Shown here: positions 2,467 through 11,367 of the stretch, one piece after another
How positions within the stretch are numbered: the stretch's first letter is position 1
Layout of the letters: every line of letters begins with the position of its first letter
Virus record (IMG/VR): IMGVR_UViG_3300029558_000018
Reading direction: 5' to 3' (one strand)
Source of the DNA: a virus
DNA length: 42,011 bases
Translations under genes and position numbers: made by a program
The notes under the pieces: model-generated
What the model was told of the DNA's origin: nothing
What the model saw: the letters and a program-made list of their open reading frames with translations, nothing else
Databases searched by the model: none

Positions 2467-3956
2467 GCAGGGTTCCCCCATTTCTCAATCAGCATTTTGC
2501 GGTCTTTCGGGCTGGCGTTTTTGTAATCCTCGTACATGTCCGCCGTCCACGGCCTTTTTCGTATATTCACAGGCTTTTTCGCCGGGCTTGTCCACCAAAC
2601 GCAAAAATAGCGTAATGCGTCCGGGTAATGCGTCAGGCCGTGCGGGTTCTTCGCATACACATCGGGGTTTTTATCATCCTTCTGTATCTTCGTCAGGCAC
2701 GTCCATAACTCGCCCGGCTTGTAGAACGTCAGATACCCTTTCCCGCTCTTTTCGTCCTTGCGCAGCCATTGTTTCATAGCCGCGCATCCTGCCGGGAAGT
2801 CTCTAGAACTCTGCACCAACGGCAATCCCGCCTCGCCGAACAGCTGTGCCCGGCTCTTGCCGCTCTCCTGGCTTCGGTTCCACAGGTCAGGTGGTGCAAG
2901 ATACATGTCTATCTCTTCCTCGGCAGAATCACGCAAAATCAAGTCTGCCGCTTCACTTATCGTCTTGTTCGGCCCGCCGTCCACCCGGTACACCGTTGCA
3001 TGGCCCTGCGTGTCAACCGCGATCCAAAGCGCCGCCAACATATCAAGGCCGTAGTCAATCGTCACATAGCGTCTTAGCGGCCCAGTGGGCGGTGCATCGA
3101 CCAAGTGGGTATCTTTGTCAAGCTCACTAAAAAAGCGCCCTCCGGGGGCGGAGAGCGCTTCTTCTTCAGTTGCAGGGTACTCCTGCATCGTTTTATCCTC
3201 GCCCAGCGCAGCAACAGTCTGTGCGTACCACTTCTCACTGCGGCGCGGGTCTGTGCTCCACGGCAAAAACAGCTTTGCAAAACCGTTGCCGGGGTTTGTG
3301 TAGATTTCCTCAAACAGCGTGCCAAGTTTGATGGTTGACAACCCGATGACACGTCCGCCGAACGGTCTGTTGATAACCGGGTATGCAGCCTGCCAGATTT
3401 CCTCTGCGTACTGCTGGAACGCCCATTCGTCTATCACGATCAAGTCAGCGGTAAACGAACGGCCTGCCGCAGGGCTTGACGGGAACGCCTTAAACACGCT
3501 CTCCGGGCCGTCCGGCCACATCACAACCACCTGCATTGTGCTTTTGTAGAATACCGGCCCCGTCCAGCCTGCAACGCTGCCGCCCGGCGTGTCCACCTCG
3601 CGGATAAGCCCCGGCATGTATCGCAGTATCACAGCCAAGCGGCGTACAAGCTCTTTGGCCTCGTCCTCTGACCGGCTCAAGCCAATCGCAGTACGGCCTG
3701 TATTCAGCGCCACAAGCCGTGCTACCTCTGCCAGCGCCAACCATGTAAAGCCCAACTGGCGCGCTTTCAGCACGCAAACAAGCCGGTTCTCGGCAAATAC
3801 GACCAGCGCTTTTTTTTGCCCATCCCACAGCGTAAACGGCTGTATCAGCTCGTCTGCGTCCTTGTCCTCAATGTGGCAATATGTTTCGCAAAAATATACC
3901 GGGTCTTTCCTGCACGCCTCGCGCTCAAGTTCCCGCATCTCTTCCAGCGTCAACAC
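2463..3956 (-). CDS. terL: Terminase large subunit
   Basis: 497 aa. Walker-A-like VLKARQLGFTW, Walker-B-like ADLIVIDEWAF and a C-terminal nuclease-sized domain. GTG start at 3956 (ATG alternative at 3938). Confidence 0.9.
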   Translation of the reverse strand: MLTLEEMRELEREACRKDPVYFCETYCHIEDKDADELIQPFTLWDGQKKALVVFAENRLVCVLKARQLGFTWLALAEVARLVALNTGRTAIGLSRSEDEAKELVRRLAVILRYMPGLIREVDTPGGSVAGWTGPVFYKSTMQVVVMWPDGPESVFKAFPSSPAAGRSFTADLIVIDEWAFQQYAEEIWQAAYPVINRPFGGRVIGLSTIKLGTLFEEIYTNPGNGFAKLFLPWSTDPRRSEKWYAQTVAALGEDKTMQEYPATEEEALSAPGGRFFSELDKDTHLVDAPPTGPLRRYVTIDYGLDMLAALWIAVDTQGHATVYRVDGGPNKTISEAADLILRDSAEEEIDMYLAPPDLWNRSQESGKSRAQLFGEAGLPLVQSSRDFPAGCAAMKQWLRKDEKSGKGYLTFYKPGELWTCLTKIQKDDKNPDVYAKNPHGLTHYPDALRYFCVWWTSPAKKPVNIRKRPWTADMYEDYKNASPKDRKMLIEKWGNPA

Positions 3957-4175
3957 ATTACCCCGCCTTTAGCAAAAGTCTTGCGTGGAAAACCAGCCAA
4001 TCAAAACGAATTGCAAAGTTCGGTACCGCATACACCATGTTGTCACGCAAAAACGAAAGCGACGGCAACAGAAAGAATGATTTCCCGTAAATCTCAAAAT
4101 CGAACTTGCAATCCATTTCTCTACCTCAAAATTCCCCAAACCCGCCCTACCGGTCTCTGCTATGCCGGTCTCACC

Positions 4176-4207
4176 CGTTGCGGGGAGCAAATCCGCAACG
4201 CTTTTTT
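4176..4207 (+). terminator. Terminator-like hairpin plus T-run on the plus strand inside the spacer
   Basis: CGTTGCGG(4176-4183)/CCGCAACG(4193-4200) followed by cTTTTTT (4201-4207). No plus-strand gene lies upstream. Confidence 0.45.
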
Positions 4208-4481
4208 GATTCCCTGTATTGTCCGCACAGGGCTGGCGGGCGTCATTTGTATACCGCACAGTCCTGCGGTGTTCGGCAGCATTTATACCCGCGCCCCTAT
4301 CCGCGGTTGAAGTTTGTTTTCGCACTTCACTGTGCGGGCATGTGTTTTCAGGCTCTCGAAGTCCCGTTGCGACCTACCATCGCGCCGCGCTCCTGATCGG
4401 CTTGCCGCTTTGCTTACAGCGTTTAGGTTCACTATCGCGTTTCCTGCGCCGGTCTTTCACCGGTGGGTGCGACCCAGCCTT

Positions 4482-4539
4482 TGCCCTCAGCAGGACTTGA
4501 ACCGGCACACCAAGGCTCTTGCCATTGAGCTACAAGGGC
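4482..4539 (-). ncRNA. tRNA-like element lacking the anticodon arm (58 nt)
   Basis: Minus strand reads GCCCTTG-TA-GCTC-AATGGCAA-GAGC-C-TTGGTGT-GCCGG-TTCAAGT-CCTGC-TGAGGGC-A. It has a 7-bp acceptor stem (two G-U pairs), a canonical D arm and a T arm with TTCAAGT loop (one C-U mismatch). About 17 nt, the size of an anticodon stem-loop, are missing. No CCA is encoded. Confidence 0.6.
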
Positions 4540-4757
4540 ATATAAAAGCCCCGCAGGTTGCGCACTGTTAGTAGGCTCGCGGGGGCTGCCTAACGGGGAA
4601 CACAATTACCGGCGTCCGACCCTGCTACCTTGACCCGTATCATCGGCATTGGTACTGCACATAGGTCTTGCACCTTTGCCACGCCGTTGCTTCGGAACGC
4701 AGCGCCCTTGCCGTATTGACTTGTCAGGCCAAGTTTGCGGCTGGCTATGCAGCATAT

Positions 4758-4786
4758 AAAAAAAGCGCCCTGCCGTAGCAGAACGC
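4758..4786 (-). terminator. Intrinsic terminator inside the terS-terL spacer
   Basis: GCGCCCTGC(4765-4773)/GCAGAACGC(4778-4786) with a 4-nt loop. The plus-strand A-run 4758-4764 gives TTTTTTT after the stem on the minus strand. Confidence 0.7.
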
Positions 4787-5232
4787 TTTGTATTGTGGCC
4801 GCTGGGTCTTGAAGCGGACGGCCCTAGTCCCATAGTCAGAGGAGGTTTTCAAACTGACACCCGCGCCGTGAAACTCAAAATTTCAAAATTTTATTTTTTT
4901 CAGGGAACTTTTGCTATTCAGGGTATAGTCCCCTTATAGGGGGGGATATGTACTCTTGTTTCTTGTTTGTAATACAATCCCGCGTTTCCTTTCATTTTGC
5001 ATGGATATTTGTGGCAGGGGAGAGAATTTATTTTTATGTTCGCTAGGGGAATTGACATATTCGTACCGGGCCGCGCTACCTATGAGCCCCGCCCTCCCCT
5101 TCATAGGGGGTACCCCCTCCCCCCGCTGCCGCCTGCCCTTTTTCGGCAGACCGCCTACAAAAAAATACCCCCGTCCTTCTTCATCTGCAGCCCGTCCCCG
5201 GTTTCCGGCTTCCGCCTGCTGCCGGCCGCTAT

Positions 5233-5256
5233 TTCGCTAAATACTTATTTAGCGAA
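5233..5256. repeat. AT-rich perfect palindrome 9 nt downstream of the terS stop
   Basis: TTCGCTAAAT-actt-ATTTAGCGAA (10-bp arms). No flanking T-run, so it is not a typical terminator. Confidence 0.8.
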
Positions 5257-5264
5257 CCACGAAG

Positions 5265-5819
5265 TCACGTATTATCGTTCTTTTGCAGCCGTCTCTGAAT
5301 ATTCTGCATCAATTCTCTATCTGCATCGGTTACCGCTTCGGCTGTAATCTCCATCTGGTCAGCCGGTTTGTCGCCCGCAGAATCCCGCACAAACACCGCC
5401 GCTTTGACGTCTCCGGCCTTCGCTTTCGCCGCCATCGCAATAGCAATGCTGTCGTACACGGTTATTGGTTTCCCCTGCTGTTGTGCTCGCTGTTGCGCCC
5501 TCTCTGCTAGCTCCTGATCTTCTATCCCTGTAATATCGTCTGGCTGCTGCAGCAAGTCGTTGTAGATGTCCTTAATAGTCCGTCTCTTCGCTTGTAGCTC
5601 GTTGCTTGCTGCTGCTCCTGCCTGTTGAATTGCCCGCTTGCGTTCTGCTGGCTGATCTCCTATGGATTTTGGAGACAACGCCGCAATCTGCGACGGTTTA
5701 ACCACTCGGCCTAAACTGTCCACCAGCTCCCCGCGCTCTGCCTGCTGCCTTGCCCGTTCGACACCCTGCTGCGCCTTGCTCATCTGCTGGACGGCCCGCG
5801 CCGCCTTCTTTTCTGCCAT
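5265..5819 (-). CDS. terS: Terminase small subunit (putative)
   Basis: 184 aa and first gene of the late operon. The C-terminal region (DSIAIAMAAKAKAGDVKAAVFVRDSAGDKPADQMEI) resembles small terminases of Firmicutes phages as I recall them. RBS AAGGTAAGGAGGG. Confidence 0.6.
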   Translation of the reverse strand: MAEKKAARAVQQMSKAQQGVERARQQAERGELVDSLGRVVKPSQIAALSPKSIGDQPAERKRAIQQAGAAASNELQAKRRTIKDIYNDLLQQPDDITGIEDQELAERAQQRAQQQGKPITVYDSIAIAMAAKAKAGDVKAAVFVRDSAGDKPADQMEITAEAVTDADRELMQNIQRRLQKNDNT

Positions 5820-6262: not shown

Positions 6263-6351
6263 CATGTACAGCTTGCACAATCTGCATGTTTCATGTTTGT
6301 GCATATCTCCGAATGTGCATGAAACATGTTGACAGCATTGCATGAATCATG
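6256..6351. promoter_or_regulatory. Array of four CATG-N3-CATG operator-like sites
   Basis: CATGCAACATG 6256-6266; CATGTTTCATG 6285-6295; CATGAAACATG 6318-6328; CATGAATCATG 6341-6351. The first overlaps the -35 of the leftward promoter. The last two flank or occupy the rightward promoter. Confidence 0.65.
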
Positions 6352-6357
6352 TATAAT
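6329..6357 (+). promoter_or_regulatory. Consensus sigma-70 promoter facing the MTase-like moron
   Basis: TTGACA (6329-6334), 17-nt spacer, TATAAT (6352-6357). Confidence 0.75.
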
Positions 6358-7860
6358 AAAGCCATCGAAACAAAGAGCAGCCGCCCCGGCAATGACTATC
6401 TGCTGGACGCCTTGCAGCTCGACTGCATCGAGCAGTCCGCCGCCCTCCGCGCCACCCTCAAAGAAAACGGTTTCCGCGTCATCCACGACGATTTCCTCAC
6501 CTTCACGCCCCGCGCCCACTATAAGGCGATCATCATGAACCCGCCGTTCTCCGAGGGTGCCCGCCACCTGCTGCACGCCCTGCACATCATGGAGCGGGGC
6601 GGGGAAGTCCGCTGCATCCTCAACGCCGAGACGATCCGCAACCCCTGCACTAACGAGCGCAAGGAGCTTGCCGCCCTGCTTGCCAAGTACAACGCCCGGA
6701 TCACCTACAAGCAAGGCGCCTTCACCCACGCCGCCCGCAAAACCGCGGTAGAGGTTGCGCTCGTTTTCGTCACGATCCCGCCTGCTCCTCCTGTCTCCCG
6801 CATCCGCTTAGAACTCAACGCCGAGACGACACAGCGCTACCAGGCCGCGCCCGAGCTTGCCGCCCTCGTCAACAATGACCCCCTCACGGCAGCAGTCGAG
6901 CGCTACAACGCCGCCGCGGACGGTCTCGCCCGCCTGTATGAAGAATACGACGGTATTTCCTCGCTGTTCACCCTACCCAAAAAGCAGGGCGACAGCAGCG
7001 CCCCCGCGCCCTGCGTCTCCCTCACCAAGAGCTACAACAACGCCCTGTGCGATCTCCGCGCCATCTATTGGGAGCAGCTTTTCGACCTTCCGCAAATCCG
7101 CGACGCCATGACGCAGACGATGCAGAACGACTACCACAAGCGCCTCAACGACCTTCGCCACTACGATTTTACCCCCTACAACATCCTGACCGTGCGCGAG
7201 GAAATCTCCCGCAACATCGTCTCCAACATTGAATCCGAGATCATCCGCCTGTTTGACGACTGGACCAGCACCCACTACGCCGACTACAGTAAGAACATTC
7301 ACTACTACAACGGCTGGTGCACAAACTCCGCCTACAAGGTCAACAAGCGCGTGATCTTCCGCTGCAACGCCTACAGCGTTTACTCCGACGATTTCTGCCC
7401 GACTTTCACCGAAGATGAGATCGCCAACATCGAGAAAACGCTTCACTTCCTCGACACCAACGGCACCGCCTACAACGGCGATGACCTCCGCGCCACGCTC
7501 AAAGCTGCCGAGGCCAGCGGCCAGACCACCAAGATCAAGCTGCACTACTTCACCGCCACGTTCTACAAAAAAGGCACCTGTCACATCGAGTTTACCAACG
7601 CCGATGTGCTGAAATCCTTCAACATCTTCGCATCCCAGAAAAAAGGCTGGCTGCCTCCGTCCTACGGCAAAAAGACCTATCACGACATGAGCACGGCAGA
7701 TCGCGCCGTCGTGGACAGCTTCGAGGGCGAGACCTCCTACAACGACACGATGGCACGGCATCTGGTCCCCACCACCGCAACACTTATGCAGCTTGCCGCC
7801 CACAACCCCGCCTGCCAACCGTCACAAGATTCTGGCCGAGATCATCGGCCGGGCAAATAA
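6349..7860 (+). CDS. N6-adenine-MTase-like protein with degenerate motif I and a large uncharacterised C-terminal domain
   Basis: NPPF at aa 64-67 (IIMNPPFSEG). Motif I reads AIETKSSRPGNDYLL where hhEPxxGxG is expected. About 350 aa of unknown function follow. The only in-frame ATG (6349) lies inside the promoter at 6329-6357. Confidence 0.6.
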   Translation: MYNKAIETKSSRPGNDYLLDALQLDCIEQSAALRATLKENGFRVIHDDFLTFTPRAHYKAIIMNPPFSEGARHLLHALHIMERGGEVRCILNAETIRNPCTNERKELAALLAKYNARITYKQGAFTHAARKTAVEVALVFVTIPPAPPVSRIRLELNAETTQRYQAAPELAALVNNDPLTAAVERYNAAADGLARLYEEYDGISSLFTLPKKQGDSSAPAPCVSLTKSYNNALCDLRAIYWEQLFDLPQIRDAMTQTMQNDYHKRLNDLRHYDFTPYNILTVREEISRNIVSNIESEIIRLFDDWTSTHYADYSKNIHYYNGWCTNSAYKVNKRVIFRCNAYSVYSDDFCPTFTEDEIANIEKTLHFLDTNGTAYNGDDLRATLKAAEASGQTTKIKLHYFTATFYKKGTCHIEFTNADVLKSFNIFASQKKGWLPPSYGKKTYHDMSTADRAVVDSFEGETSYNDTMARHLVPTTATLMQLAAHNPACQPSQDSGRDHRPGK

Positions 7861-8684: not shown

Positions 8685-9800
8685 TTATATCGTTTTATCG
8701 CTTATAAATTTTTCAAGTGCCGCTCCTGCTGTATCTAGCTGGCGTTCCCGTATATGTGTATATACTCGCCGTGTTGTCGTAATGTCGGCATGCCCCATAA
8801 GGCGTTGCGCTTCCAGCTCTGCAATGCCCGCCGCATATAACATGCTGGCGTATTCGTGCCGGAACTGGTGCGCCGTTACGTCGGCAATCCAGTCCTTAAT
8901 CGTCGTTGTGTACTCTTTGCCTCTGTGCTTATTTCTTCGTGTGTGCAGCACATAGTGCGCCATGCCCACATCCTTGCAGTAATATGCCCATCTGCGCTTG
9001 TATGCGCAGCCTGTCAGCGGCCTTTCCCCTCCGAGTATATACTCACTATCTGCCCCGCGCAGCGGTTCCAGCACGCCCCGTAGCGGCGACAGCAGCGGCA
9101 CAGTGCGCACACCGTTTGCAGTTTTCGGCGCTTGTACAATCGGCTGGTTGTTTATCCACGCCACTTCTTTGGAAATGCTAATTCTGTTTTTCTCAAAATC
9201 CACATCATGCCATTGCAGCGCCAGCACCTCACCCAGTCGGCATCCCGTATACATGAACAGCCAGGCACACAGCCCGAACCCCTCCGGGTGTGCCTTGACG
9301 ATTTGTAGCTGTTCCTCTGTCGGCGGCTCACGCTCTGCTTTTTTCATTCCTCTAGGCAAATCCGTAACTGTCACCGGGTTGTATGTTTCGTCATCCCGGA
9401 CGCACCAAAACTTGAACACACAAGACAACACACTCCGGGCATTGCTTGCCGTCTTCCCTGCATAGCCTGCGGCCTTGAATTTCTCGCCCCACAGCGACAC
9501 CAGCGCGGGCGTTATCTCCTTCATGCGGTACCCGCTGAACTCTTCCAGCGCGGCCTTGTAGCTGCCCTTGTAGGCTCTTTCCGCGCCGGTCTTGATATTT
9601 TTTGAATGGCTCTCCCACCATTCACCGGCCACATCCTCAAACAGCGGGCCGTTCTCTTTCACCGCTTCCCGTTGGCGTTCGTACTCGTCAATTTTTGCGG
9701 CGACCTCTTTCGCGGTCTTGCCGTAAAAGTGTACCCGCTTGCCGTCATAGGTTTTTGTCCGTTCAATCAGCCCATCGGCCCGCGCTTTTGCTCTCGCCAT
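8685..9800 (-). CDS. int: Tyrosine integrase
   Basis: 371 aa. C-terminal HQFRHEYASMLYAAGI...LMGHADITTTRRVYTH supplies the R..HxxR..H..Y catalytic signature. An N-terminal SAM-like/arm-binding region is present. Confidence 0.95.
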   Translation of the reverse strand: MARAKARADGLIERTKTYDGKRVHFYGKTAKEVAAKIDEYERQREAVKENGPLFEDVAGEWWESHSKNIKTGAERAYKGSYKAALEEFSGYRMKEITPALVSLWGEKFKAAGYAGKTASNARSVLSCVFKFWCVRDDETYNPVTVTDLPRGMKKAEREPPTEEQLQIVKAHPEGFGLCAWLFMYTGCRLGEVLALQWHDVDFEKNRISISKEVAWINNQPIVQAPKTANGVRTVPLLSPLRGVLEPLRGADSEYILGGERPLTGCAYKRRWAYYCKDVGMAHYVLHTRRNKHRGKEYTTTIKDWIADVTAHQFRHEYASMLYAAGIAELEAQRLMGHADITTTRRVYTHIRERQLDTAGAALEKFISDKTI

Positions 9801-10958: not shown

Positions 10959-11063
10959 ATGACCCAGCTCGAAAAAATCAGGATTGCAGCAGACGATCTA
11001 ACCGACGAAGAACTTCGCGAGGTCCTTCTATATATTCAATCGATCAAGCAGAGTCCCGCTTAG
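10959..11063 (+). CDS. 34-aa ORF resembling the C-terminus of the adjacent repressor
   Basis: RBS AAAAAGGAGA. Sequence is MTQLEKIRIAADDLTDEELREVLLYIQSIKQSPA. It overlaps the repressor 3' end convergently by 20 nt. Confidence 0.4.
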   Translation: MTQLEKIRIAADDLTDEELREVLLYIQSIKQSPA

Positions 11064-11367
11064 ACTTTACATAAGCTATATACTTTAGAATGTCTTCCCG
11101 CTCTGCATCAGTAAGGTCTACGCACTCTCTGGCTACGATTTCCCCATTGCTTTCTGCAATGGGGTTTTCTTTTTTGTCCATAGATAGCAAATAGTCCGCA
11201 GACACACCAAAGTATTCCGCTATTTTTTGCAGCTGTGCCGCCTGTGGACTAGTACCTTTTTTCTTCCACACCGAAACAGTACCTTTATTTATACCCATAT
11301 CCAGCGCCGCCCGGCTACAAGTCACATTGTGTTCTTCACATAGTTTCTTGTAAACGTCAAAAAACAT
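11044..11367 (-). CDS. XRE-family (CI-like) repressor
   Basis: 107 aa. HTH CSRAALDMGINKGTVSVWKKKGTSPQAAQLQKIAEYFGVSADYLL. Divergent from a Cro-like gene. Confidence 0.9.
   Translation of the reverse strand: MFFDVYKKLCEEHNVTCSRAALDMGINKGTVSVWKKKGTSPQAAQLQKIAEYFGVSADYLLSMDKKENPIAESNGEIVARECVDLTDAEREDILKYIAYVKSKRDSA

Follow-up and report, generated by a model that had tools for sequence, protein, structure and literature searches.

IMG/VR virus record IMGVR_UViG_3300029558_000018 is a DNA of 42,011 nucleotides (nt), here called the window, in which a gap of 1,308 bases separates two genes read on the minus strand: an open reading frame (ORF) of 184 amino acids (aa) with its stop at 5265, and the gene for the large terminase subunit, terL, with its start at 3956. 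The TerL protein belongs to phrog_2 ('terminase large subunit', E=2e-25) and matches Pfam Terminase_6N weakly. The initial annotation had described the gap as an ORF-free and structure-rich spacer between terS and terL, and as a candidate locus for a large non-coding RNA. The gap is real, and it probably represents a largely non-coding RNA locus of mosaic structure in a temperate phage whose hosts are Gemmiger-like gut Clostridia. Its conserved part is a cassette of about 620 bases, window 4753-4137 on the minus strand, in which B1, B2, tL, C, linker and D12-methyl follow one another in this order (Table 1). The cassette is found in at least 150 otherwise unrelated gut-phage contigs of IMG/VR and in a Gemmiger sp. 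metagenome-assembled genome (MAG); as a modular RNA locus it is conserved, is shared horizontally and includes a known motif.

Table 1. Features of the gap and its surroundings, in the order in which the minus strand is read; positions refer to the window except in the last row, where the numbered comparison loci are named.
Feature	Position	Strand	Description
184-aa protein gene	5265-5819	minus	'terS' label by position alone
Inverted repeat	5233-5256	unassigned	11 bp, TTCGCTAAATA-AG-TATTTAGCGAA, directly after the stop of the 184-aa gene
Block A	4881-5264	minus	lineage-specific 5' part; GCGGAAA-like purine-rich repeats, G/C tracts (about 5085-5124), GGGGGTACCCCC
Block A4T	4762-4880	minus	small-RNA-like or 5'-leader element
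B1	4650-4753	minus	tRNA-like four-way junction, ~105 nt, encoded CCA end
B2	4540-4649	minus	optional spacer module; terminal hairpin, then UUUUAUAU into tL
tL	4482-4539	minus	58-nt tRNA-like element; 7-bp acceptor stem, D arm (GG), T arm (UUCAAGU)
Module C	4333-4481	minus	multi-hairpin RNA, about 145 nt; holds the CCGGTgaaagACCGG hairpin of the initial annotation
Linker X (form C3)	4201-4332	minus	between C and D12; ends in an A-run; folding z-score -1.4
D12-methyl RNA (RF02950)	4137-4200	minus	84.2 bits against a gathering score of 57, E=1.9e-15, model positions 1-64 of 64
ORF52	3958-4116	minus	52 codons, 159 nt; ribosome-binding site GAGG at 4127-4124, 7 nt upstream
Ribozyme matches in relatives	L035 1846-1925; L036 1383-1462, 633-699; L041 1033-1117; L033 1424-1490; L001 175-227; L008 225-277	opposite terL	

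The search for known RNA families with Rfam 15 (4,227 families) covered the whole window at gathering thresholds, and positions 3800-5400 on both strands with permissive filters and E-values up to 10. The real matches in the gap are two, D12-methyl (RF02950) and tRNA (RF00005). The initial annotation had looked to the wrong class of RNA, and the D12-methyl family went unrecognised there; the tRNA-like element that it had seen at the position of tL does match the tRNA family, with 34.5 bits against a gathering score of 29. The families it had named for a search, ROOL (RF03087), GOLLD (RF01998), tmRNA, RNase P, 6S and group I and II introns, gave nothing in 3800-5400 up to E=10 apart from group-II-D1D4-4, whose match is below threshold (22.3 bits, gathering score 49), contains a 40-nt deletion and was judged to be chance. 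ROOL and GOLLD are likewise absent from the array of another D12-bearing contig, L089, and ARAGORN finds no tRNA or tmRNA anywhere in the window.

The comparison set comprises about 240 IMG/VR loci overall, designated by L-numbers (L001 etc.), of which L081-L191 are contigs with D12-methyl. Relatives by TerL were taken from IMG/VR, where the best 80 of 100 were used; scans of the same database with a 24-nt pattern of the D12-methyl core and a 19-nt pattern of module C gave 111 and 102 stretches, 48 of the latter being new loci. The sequences are nearly all from gut metagenomes, many of them from one project (3300045988), and the whole gap has no match among 50,697 GenBank phage records (blastn, 'distant'). 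When 185,579 species genomes were scanned with the 24-nt core, only the Gemmiger sp. MAG and a Thiobacillus sp. MAG were found. The Gemmiger sp. MAG contains a true prophage of the window lineage, with a TerL 83% identical and the gap conserved, and is the only clue to the host. The Thiobacillus sp. MAG (L192 4682-4705) has the exact core without the other modules or a TerL relative; this match may be due to chance, to misbinning of the contig or to a distant copy of D12-methyl.

The conservation among related phages that the initial annotation had proposed as a check was found, the gap being retained at 0.35-2.36 kb. With both flanks present it measures 1.07-2.36 kb at TerL identities of at least 85% and 0.35-1.1 kb at 51-66%. 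It is a mosaic: nearly all members of the close group have certain blocks of the window, other blocks are optional, and D12-methyl stands next to terL in all close relatives tested. One to four real tRNA genes per gap, in varying combinations and on the gene strand, are present in the relatives (Ser-GCU, Thr-UGU, Trp-CCA, Asp-GUC and Gln-UUG), and the tRNA-shaped slots are found occupied by working tRNA genes for Ser, Thr, Trp, Asp, Met, Gln and Gly. At TerL identities of 66% or less, profiles of B1 and C (nhmmer) found nothing, and Rfam gave only tRNAs and one sub-threshold D12-like match. The latter, at 3838-3911 of a relative at 66% TerL identity (L036), has 51.7 bits against the gathering score of 57, overlaps the 3' end of a tRNA-Gln 90 nt before terL, and may represent the motif in a diverged or fused state.

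In unrelated backbones the sequence upstream of D12 matches gap blocks 504-1128 (window 4761-4137) with 75-98% identity (blastn); the first 500 nt of the gap were not found there by the same search. The genes that start after D12 in the 111 stretches are this TerL, a GP3_package terS with Terminase_3, an SPP1-type portal, ParB_N and N6_N4 methylases, a D12-class methylase, others, and small ORFs. The gene upstream of the array is in most other backbones a small one that encodes either DUF1492 (Pfam E=1.6e-7) or a 129-aa family without a Pfam match. DUF1492 is the LtrB family, which activates the late terS promoter in phages of Gram-positive bacteria (PMC3753634). The ~120 nt between this small gene and B1 contain a conserved -10-like box, a short leader with AAAACCUCC or a CU-rich stretch, and the hairpin GCCGGGAAAGACCGGC followed by AUUUUAU; a hairpin with UUUUAUAU is also seen in the leader of other backbones. 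Two contigs (L111 and L136) have the array between a TerL-like gene and the portal, behind a near-consensus TTGAAA-16-TGnTATAAT. The junctions at which the cassette is found are ltr/terS, 'terS'/terL and terL/portal.

The 104 distinct units follow one grammar: B1, any tRNAs or spacers, a tRNA or tRNA-like element, module C starting 3-6 nt after the 3' end of that element, linker, D12-methyl and gene. D12-methyl always follows C; a D12-like element was found 110-160 nt after C in 47 of the 48 new loci, the one exception being cut by the end of the contig, and since these loci had been found by means of C alone, the two modules are obligately linked. The modules are locally closed, and are independently present or absent across loci. 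No helix between modules was seen (a systematic search for long-range covariation was not made). Candidate pairings that were rejected are those of the D12 tail AGGGCGGG with CCCGCC of the linker, where the partner occurs only in the C3 linker form and is not general, of the CU-rich leader (CCUCC) with the G-run after D12, with an unconvincing common core of just 5 bp, and of the D12 tail with the 5' half of the downstream terminator, where the apparent variation belongs to hairpin 2 of D12.

In 95 of 98 copies the first base of B1, G1, is immediately preceded by the leader UUUUAU(A/U)U. The element is closed by a 9-bp acceptor-like stem with a UG bulge and bears three arms, of which the first is hypervariable (0 to 60 nt) and the third is short and has a GNRA-like loop; its 3' end consists of one or two unpaired bases in the place of the discriminator and an almost invariant CCA. 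Among 40 distinct sequences, 94.3% of cells are paired (23-41% in slid controls) and 8 pairs have changed on both sides, counts that for this module as for module C reflect few independent events, as the sequences are closely related and several helices invariant. The covariation score is 0.207 as against 0.144 in shuffles, none of which, out of 500, attains it. When the window copy is folded for minimum energy, the same four-way junction results. B1 has no match in Rfam, either in the window or in the L089 array, and is not called as a tRNA by ARAGORN; from its anatomy it looks like an oversized mimic of the tRNA acceptor and elbow.

B2 contains a possible H-type pseudoknot formed by UAGGC/GCCUA (4592-4588 and 4576-4572) and CCCCGC/GCGGGG (4584-4579 and 4554-4549), the second stem showing two compensatory changes (CCGCCAC/GUGGCGG in L019, L031 and L032). 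Its presence or absence is independent of the neighbouring modules, and five loci (L003, L005, L008, L012 and L029) have an alternative, non-homologous module in the same slot. B2 and the hairpin at 4789-4762 are spacers of one type, in which a hairpin, a U-run and AUAU lead into the next tRNA-shaped element, and a UUUAUAU-type leader after a hairpin precedes B1 and most tRNAs. The initial annotation had read the second of these hairpins as an intrinsic terminator of the minus strand. The hairpin and its U-tract were found at 4789-4762 (12 pairs, then TTTTTTT), and termination there is predicted; the discrete transcript that had been proposed to end at 4758-4786 did not hold up, the site being one copy of the recurring spacer.

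In tL about 8 nt stand in place of the anticodon arm, and the 3' end lacks an encoded CCA; in the Rfam tRNA alignment the 18 model positions of the anticodon arm are reduced to 4 nt. The element thus scores above the gathering threshold of the tRNA family without having a complete cloverleaf, and as it lacks the anticodon arm it cannot decode. The element before module C could be classified in 137 instances: 70 have the 58-nt form, 18 an 85-nt form, 13 a 63-nt form with a miniature arm, 18 other non-canonical forms and 8 a canonical tRNA, and there are 10 others, five of which have an extra hairpin between tRNA-Trp and C. More than 90% of the instances have a tRNA-shaped element in this place. 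Because the 58-nt form makes up 70 of the 137 and is spread across unrelated backbones, tL is no private decay product of the window genome. The acceptor, D and T arms are kept in these elements, and changes in the T stem are compensated (L014), while the anticodon region is degenerate; selection therefore appears to act on the tRNA shape, and so on processing, and not on decoding. The 85-nt form (e.g. L032 3361-3446, L081 and L090) has normal acceptor, D and T arms and an aberrant anticodon region with CUCAUGA and a CAGC-AUA-GCUG hairpin. ARAGORN names it tRNA-His(atg), with an anticodon that is not used in nature.

Module C is 96.9% paired by cells among 27 sequences, with 7 pairs changed on both sides, a result that 0 of 500 shuffles reach; slid controls are 25-46% paired. 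A variant 5' half (L012 and L025) forms the same hairpins from different sequence. G·U cells exceed A·C cells by 98:25 in B1 and by 58:9 in module C, which places the structure in the RNA of the gene strand and not in duplex DNA. The folding-energy z-scores of the modules lie between -0.3 and -1.7, except for B2 with +2.1, and the first 125 nt of the gap (5140-5264) have -4.0; the description of the gap as rich in structure is therefore supported by covariation and not by folding energy. The linker between C and D12 exists in 85 distinct versions of 63-202 nt that belong to a few mosaic forms, the C3 form being optional. It is built from small hairpins, after each of which stands a GGNAUAUAAAU-like motif. 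The three short GC hairpins pointed out in the initial annotation are located in module C and in the linker.

D12-methyl has two hairpins and conserved single strands, GGGUGAG and AGGGCGGG, and lies 8-20 nt upstream of the ribosome-binding site of the next gene. The terminator-like hairpin that had been noted on the plus strand is present with its T-run at 4176-4200, and is hairpin 1 of D12-methyl read backwards. In the window lineage D12 runs straight into GGGGAAUUUUGAGG and then ORF52 or terL. In most other backbones three elements come between D12 and the ribosome-binding site of the first gene: a hairpin with CCUCC in its loop, a G-run and a strong intrinsic terminator, which in L089 has 11 pairs and lies 38 nt after D12. 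Leaders that control termination usually have such a layout, with a conserved RNA immediately ahead of the terminator.

The motif is reportedly named for its position upstream of a D12-class N6-adenine DNA methyltransferase gene. This association fails in the window, where ORF52 and terL follow, and holds in a minority of the loci (D12-class in L087, ParB-N6/N4 in L095). The D12-class methyltransferase ORF of L087 starts 99 nt after the D12 core and has a run of LQRLQSLES-like repeats between the N- and C-terminal catalytic parts. The only methylase of the window is a DUF4942/MTS DNA methyltransferase at 6349-7860 on the plus strand, opposite to D12-methyl and 2 kb away from it. In the literature searched for a function of D12-methyl, no paper naming the motif was found.

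Two blocks precede the cassette in the window. In A4T a hairpin (4858-4835) with CCUCC in its loop is followed by ~60 invariant nt, the terminator-like hairpin at 4789-4762 and U7-AUAU. The CCUCC of the loop is the anti-Shine-Dalgarno sequence; the stem that carries it exists in four pairing versions (GUCAG/CUGAC, CAGUA/UACUG, AGUAAG/CUUACU and AUAGUA/UAUUGU), and the terminator stem also covaries. A4T looks, by its layout, like the counterpart of the short leader in other backbones. Immediately upstream, at about 4860-4915, is an AT-rich block that resembles a promoter and may, at a guess, be that of A4T; both this block and the G/C tracts had been described correctly in the initial annotation.

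Block A is confined to the TerL lineage and absent from the other backbones that carry the cassette. Its alignment shows length-variable repeats and invariant islands without covariation, and its folding z-scores are 0.15 and -1.6. It includes an optional sub-block at about 4905-5014, and in six loci (L002, L004, L020, L021, L028 and L046) this part is replaced by an apparent small protein gene, with AAGAGG as ribosome-binding site and a protein that starts MERQKYNADNNGPVGERGPAWYDDYTIEELLERI. The inverted repeat at the beginning of block A is identical in nearly all close relatives while its flanks vary, dominates the z-score of -4.0 of 5140-5264, and could be a protein-binding site or an RNA hairpin. 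A sigma-70-like site, TTCAGA-17-GATAAT, is found at 5299-5271 on the minus strand, inside the end of the 184-aa gene, and together with the inverted repeat it looks like a promoter with an operator. Block A as a whole is a possible promoter/operator or pac region.

The description of the gap as ORF-free was correct for the long reading frames and not for a short one. No gap ORF longer than 40 aa has a match in Pfam or PHROGs, and the longest ones are conserved neither in position nor in frame or strand across 49 related loci, as would be expected of a non-coding region of 55% G+C. ORF52, with its ribosome-binding site, is free of stops and indels in 12 distinct variants, that of the Gemmiger MAG included, and indels are abundant in the non-coding modules around it. 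The differences between the variants are distributed over the codon positions as 348/255/401, and the stop codon adjoins the GTG start of terL. ORF52 has no protein family match and is an optional module, missing from L003-L007, L010 and L015, among others; its intact frame suggests that it is probably a real small protein gene. The non-coding part of the gap is then about 4117-5264.

The name terS for the gene on the other side of the gap was not upheld, as no TerS family profile, named homologue or TerS fold was recovered for the 184-aa protein. Sequence searches gave no match in Pfam, NCBIfam or PDB and a sole PHROG match to phrog_2412 (E=0.0015), a family without known function; all 98 homologues among 5.8 billion proteins are unnamed, the AlphaFold2 model is poor (predicted local distance difference test 65) and its Foldseek matches are uninformative. 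A tyrosine integrase gene and a Cro/CI-type helix-turn-helix gene (8685-9800 and 11044-11367, both on the minus strand) lie 0.5-5 kb upstream of the 184-aa gene, and an integration module beside packaging genes is an unusual order. Some relatives have twister-sister, pistol and RAGATH-5 ribozymes above the gathering scores, 2-3.8 kb upstream of terL and on the opposite strand; none of these is among the Rfam matches of the window.

Anatomy, conservation, covariation and genomic contexts, as observed, suggest how the locus may be transcribed and processed and what D12-methyl may do. The gap is probably a non-coding leader of the packaging operon that is punctuated by tRNA shapes and processed, or an RNA 'moron' of that operon, with D12-methyl acting in cis. 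The array would be transcribed with, or just ahead of, the packaging or late genes, from a promoter upstream of B1 that may be LtrB-dependent or sigma-A-like in other backbones and is perhaps the AT-rich block at 4860-4915 here. RNase P would cleave every tRNA-shaped element at its 5' boundary, and the 3' boundary would be processed by RNase Z or exonucleases. These cuts would release tRNAs, where present, and stable small RNAs, and would leave C, linker and D12 as the structured, processed 5' leader of the ORF52-terL message. D12-methyl would then influence termination or antitermination where a terminator follows, and translation or stability in the window.

Several observations weigh against this interpretation. 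No terminator follows D12 in the window lineage, so that a role in antitermination is not evident there, and no alternative pairing was found that would make D12 a classical attenuator. The spacers of hairpin and U-run within the array could end transcription before terL, which would make the elements separate small genes and not parts of a leader. The z-scores of the modules do not stand out from those of shuffled sequence, the covariation comes from closely related sequences, mostly of metagenome 3300045988, with few independent events, and block A (4881-5264) is left unexplained.

A more far-reaching version is tentative. D12-methyl might be the tail of an undescribed mobile RNA cassette of the phages of gut Clostridia, in which non-decoding tRNA mimics serve as punctuation for RNase P and RNase Z; the ~350-420-nt RNA of C, linker and D12 released in this way would control entry into the late operon, e.g. 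as a processive antiterminator, or act in trans.

It is unlikely that C, linker and D12 (~340 nt, or ~420 nt with the terminator elsewhere), perhaps with B1 and the tRNA-like element (~620 nt), form a single large trans-acting RNA in the manner of GOLLD and ROOL. GOLLD is said to have variable regions and an embedded tRNA, which this locus recalls. The obligate linkage and fixed order of C and D12 fit such an RNA, as does the unit bounded in other backbones by a tRNA 3' end and an intrinsic terminator; a (pro)phage context beside tRNAs and several hundred nt of conserved non-coding sequence are also shared with GOLLD and ROOL (PMC5737381). However, neither covariance model matches, even at E=10 with lax filters, and the layout is modular: the modules are self-closed, no long-range helix between them was found (no systematic search for long-range covariation was made), the CCCGCC/GGCGGG pairing is available in one linker form only, and the presence of B1, of B2 and of each linker form varies independently. 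In the window lineage the unit moreover abuts a ribosome-binding site, without a terminator. The large RNA locus proposed in the initial annotation is thus borne out as conserved non-coding RNA next to a tRNA-like sequence in a (pro)phage, but it behaves as a chain of separate modules and not as one fixed large fold.

Phage tRNAs are known to counter anticodon nucleases, and tL, B1 and the extra tRNAs could be decoys that act in trans against tRNA-targeting defences of the host or titrate tRNA enzymes, with C and D12 as unrelated neighbours. The acceptor, T and D elbow is conserved in elements that do not decode, in B1 together with CCA, and the same locus carries a variable cargo of real tRNAs. 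This explanation, which is compatible with the processing model, is quite unlikely: it does not account for a tRNA-shaped element 3-6 nt before C in more than 90% of the instances or for the fixed place of the array ahead of packaging genes, and the array has no defence or anti-defence gene linked to it.

Still more doubtful is a signal at the level of DNA, that is a pac or cos site or a region bound by protein, such as an operator or an origin, with the inverted repeats as binding sites. The position next to the terminase genes speaks for it, and block A, with its invariant 11-bp inverted repeat, G/C tracts and purine repeats and no covariation, has the corresponding features. In addition 17 of the 111 D12-bearing contigs have an end no more than 500 nt from D12, against about 3 expected by chance, but these ends could equally well be assembly breaks in sequence common to co-occurring phages as genome termini. 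In 4753-4137 the pairing is kept by compensatory changes while the sequence changes, and the excess of G·U is strand-biased, both of which point to RNA; the cassette also stands beside unrelated terminase families and between terL and portal, which misfits a terminase-specific site. The pac region offered in the initial annotation as the main alternative is accordingly unlikely for 4753-4137, and possible for 4881-5264. Decayed coding sequence or neutral recombination junk is highly improbable, for although the gap is a recombination mosaic with many indels and long spurious ORFs are expected at 55% G+C, no gap ORF has a family match or a conserved frame, the modules are 80-98% conserved across backbones with unrelated neighbours, two of them match curated RNA families, and covariation backs RNA structure.

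The processed, tRNA-punctuated leader favoured above resembles several known systems in part. The window sequence is a full-length and high-scoring member of the D12-methyl motif (RF02950; Weinberg et al. 2017, PMC5737381), but the downstream gene is mostly not a methylase (terL, terS, portal or a small ORF), and the motif is here the last module of a 0.5-1.3 kb array with module C always upstream, neither of which is part of the Rfam entry as returned. With the tRNA gene clusters of phages the relatives share their one to four real tRNAs in the gap; unlike these clusters, the window copy has no functional tRNA, and tRNA shapes and non-tRNA modules are interleaved by a fixed grammar.

Non-decoding or punctuating tRNA shapes have been shown experimentally to direct processing in eukaryotes and organelles, at the 3' end of MALAT1 (mascRNA) and in mitochondrial tRNA punctuation. 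The likeness lies in a non-decoding tRNA shape at the junction with another RNA, the end of which would be set by RNase P or RNase Z cleavage; the difference is that processing is here suggested by anatomy alone.

The put RNA of phage HK022 is a two-hairpin antiterminator, and attenuators of the riboswitch and T-box type control termination. D12 is comparable as a conserved two-hairpin leader RNA that in most backbones lies 38 nt before a terminator ahead of a long late operon, but it is not related to these in sequence, no alternative antiterminator pairing was found and the window lineage is without the terminator. Phage morons are autonomous units from promoter to terminator between late genes. 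The cassette similarly occurs at different junctions, in several backbones with a promoter-like site upstream and a terminator downstream; it differs in carrying RNA modules and no protein gene as cargo. Some of the modules may already be among the 10,006 candidate viral RNAs catalogued from IMG/VR (PMC10690425).

For annotation, the locus means that terminase genes may lie far apart without this being an error or the sign of a lost gene. None of the 4,227 families of Rfam 15 corresponds to B1, tL, C or the linker units, which are new candidate RNA modules. D12-methyl, whose function has been unassigned since 2017, gains a setting ahead of packaging or late genes, as the last part of a probable tRNA-punctuated leader, often after an LtrB-type activator and before a terminator, and this setting yields testable hypotheses on the control of termination and on processing by RNase P and RNase Z. 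A tRNA shape that is under apparent selection without decoding bears on RNA processing in the phages of Firmicutes, and possibly on the conflict over tRNA between phage and host.

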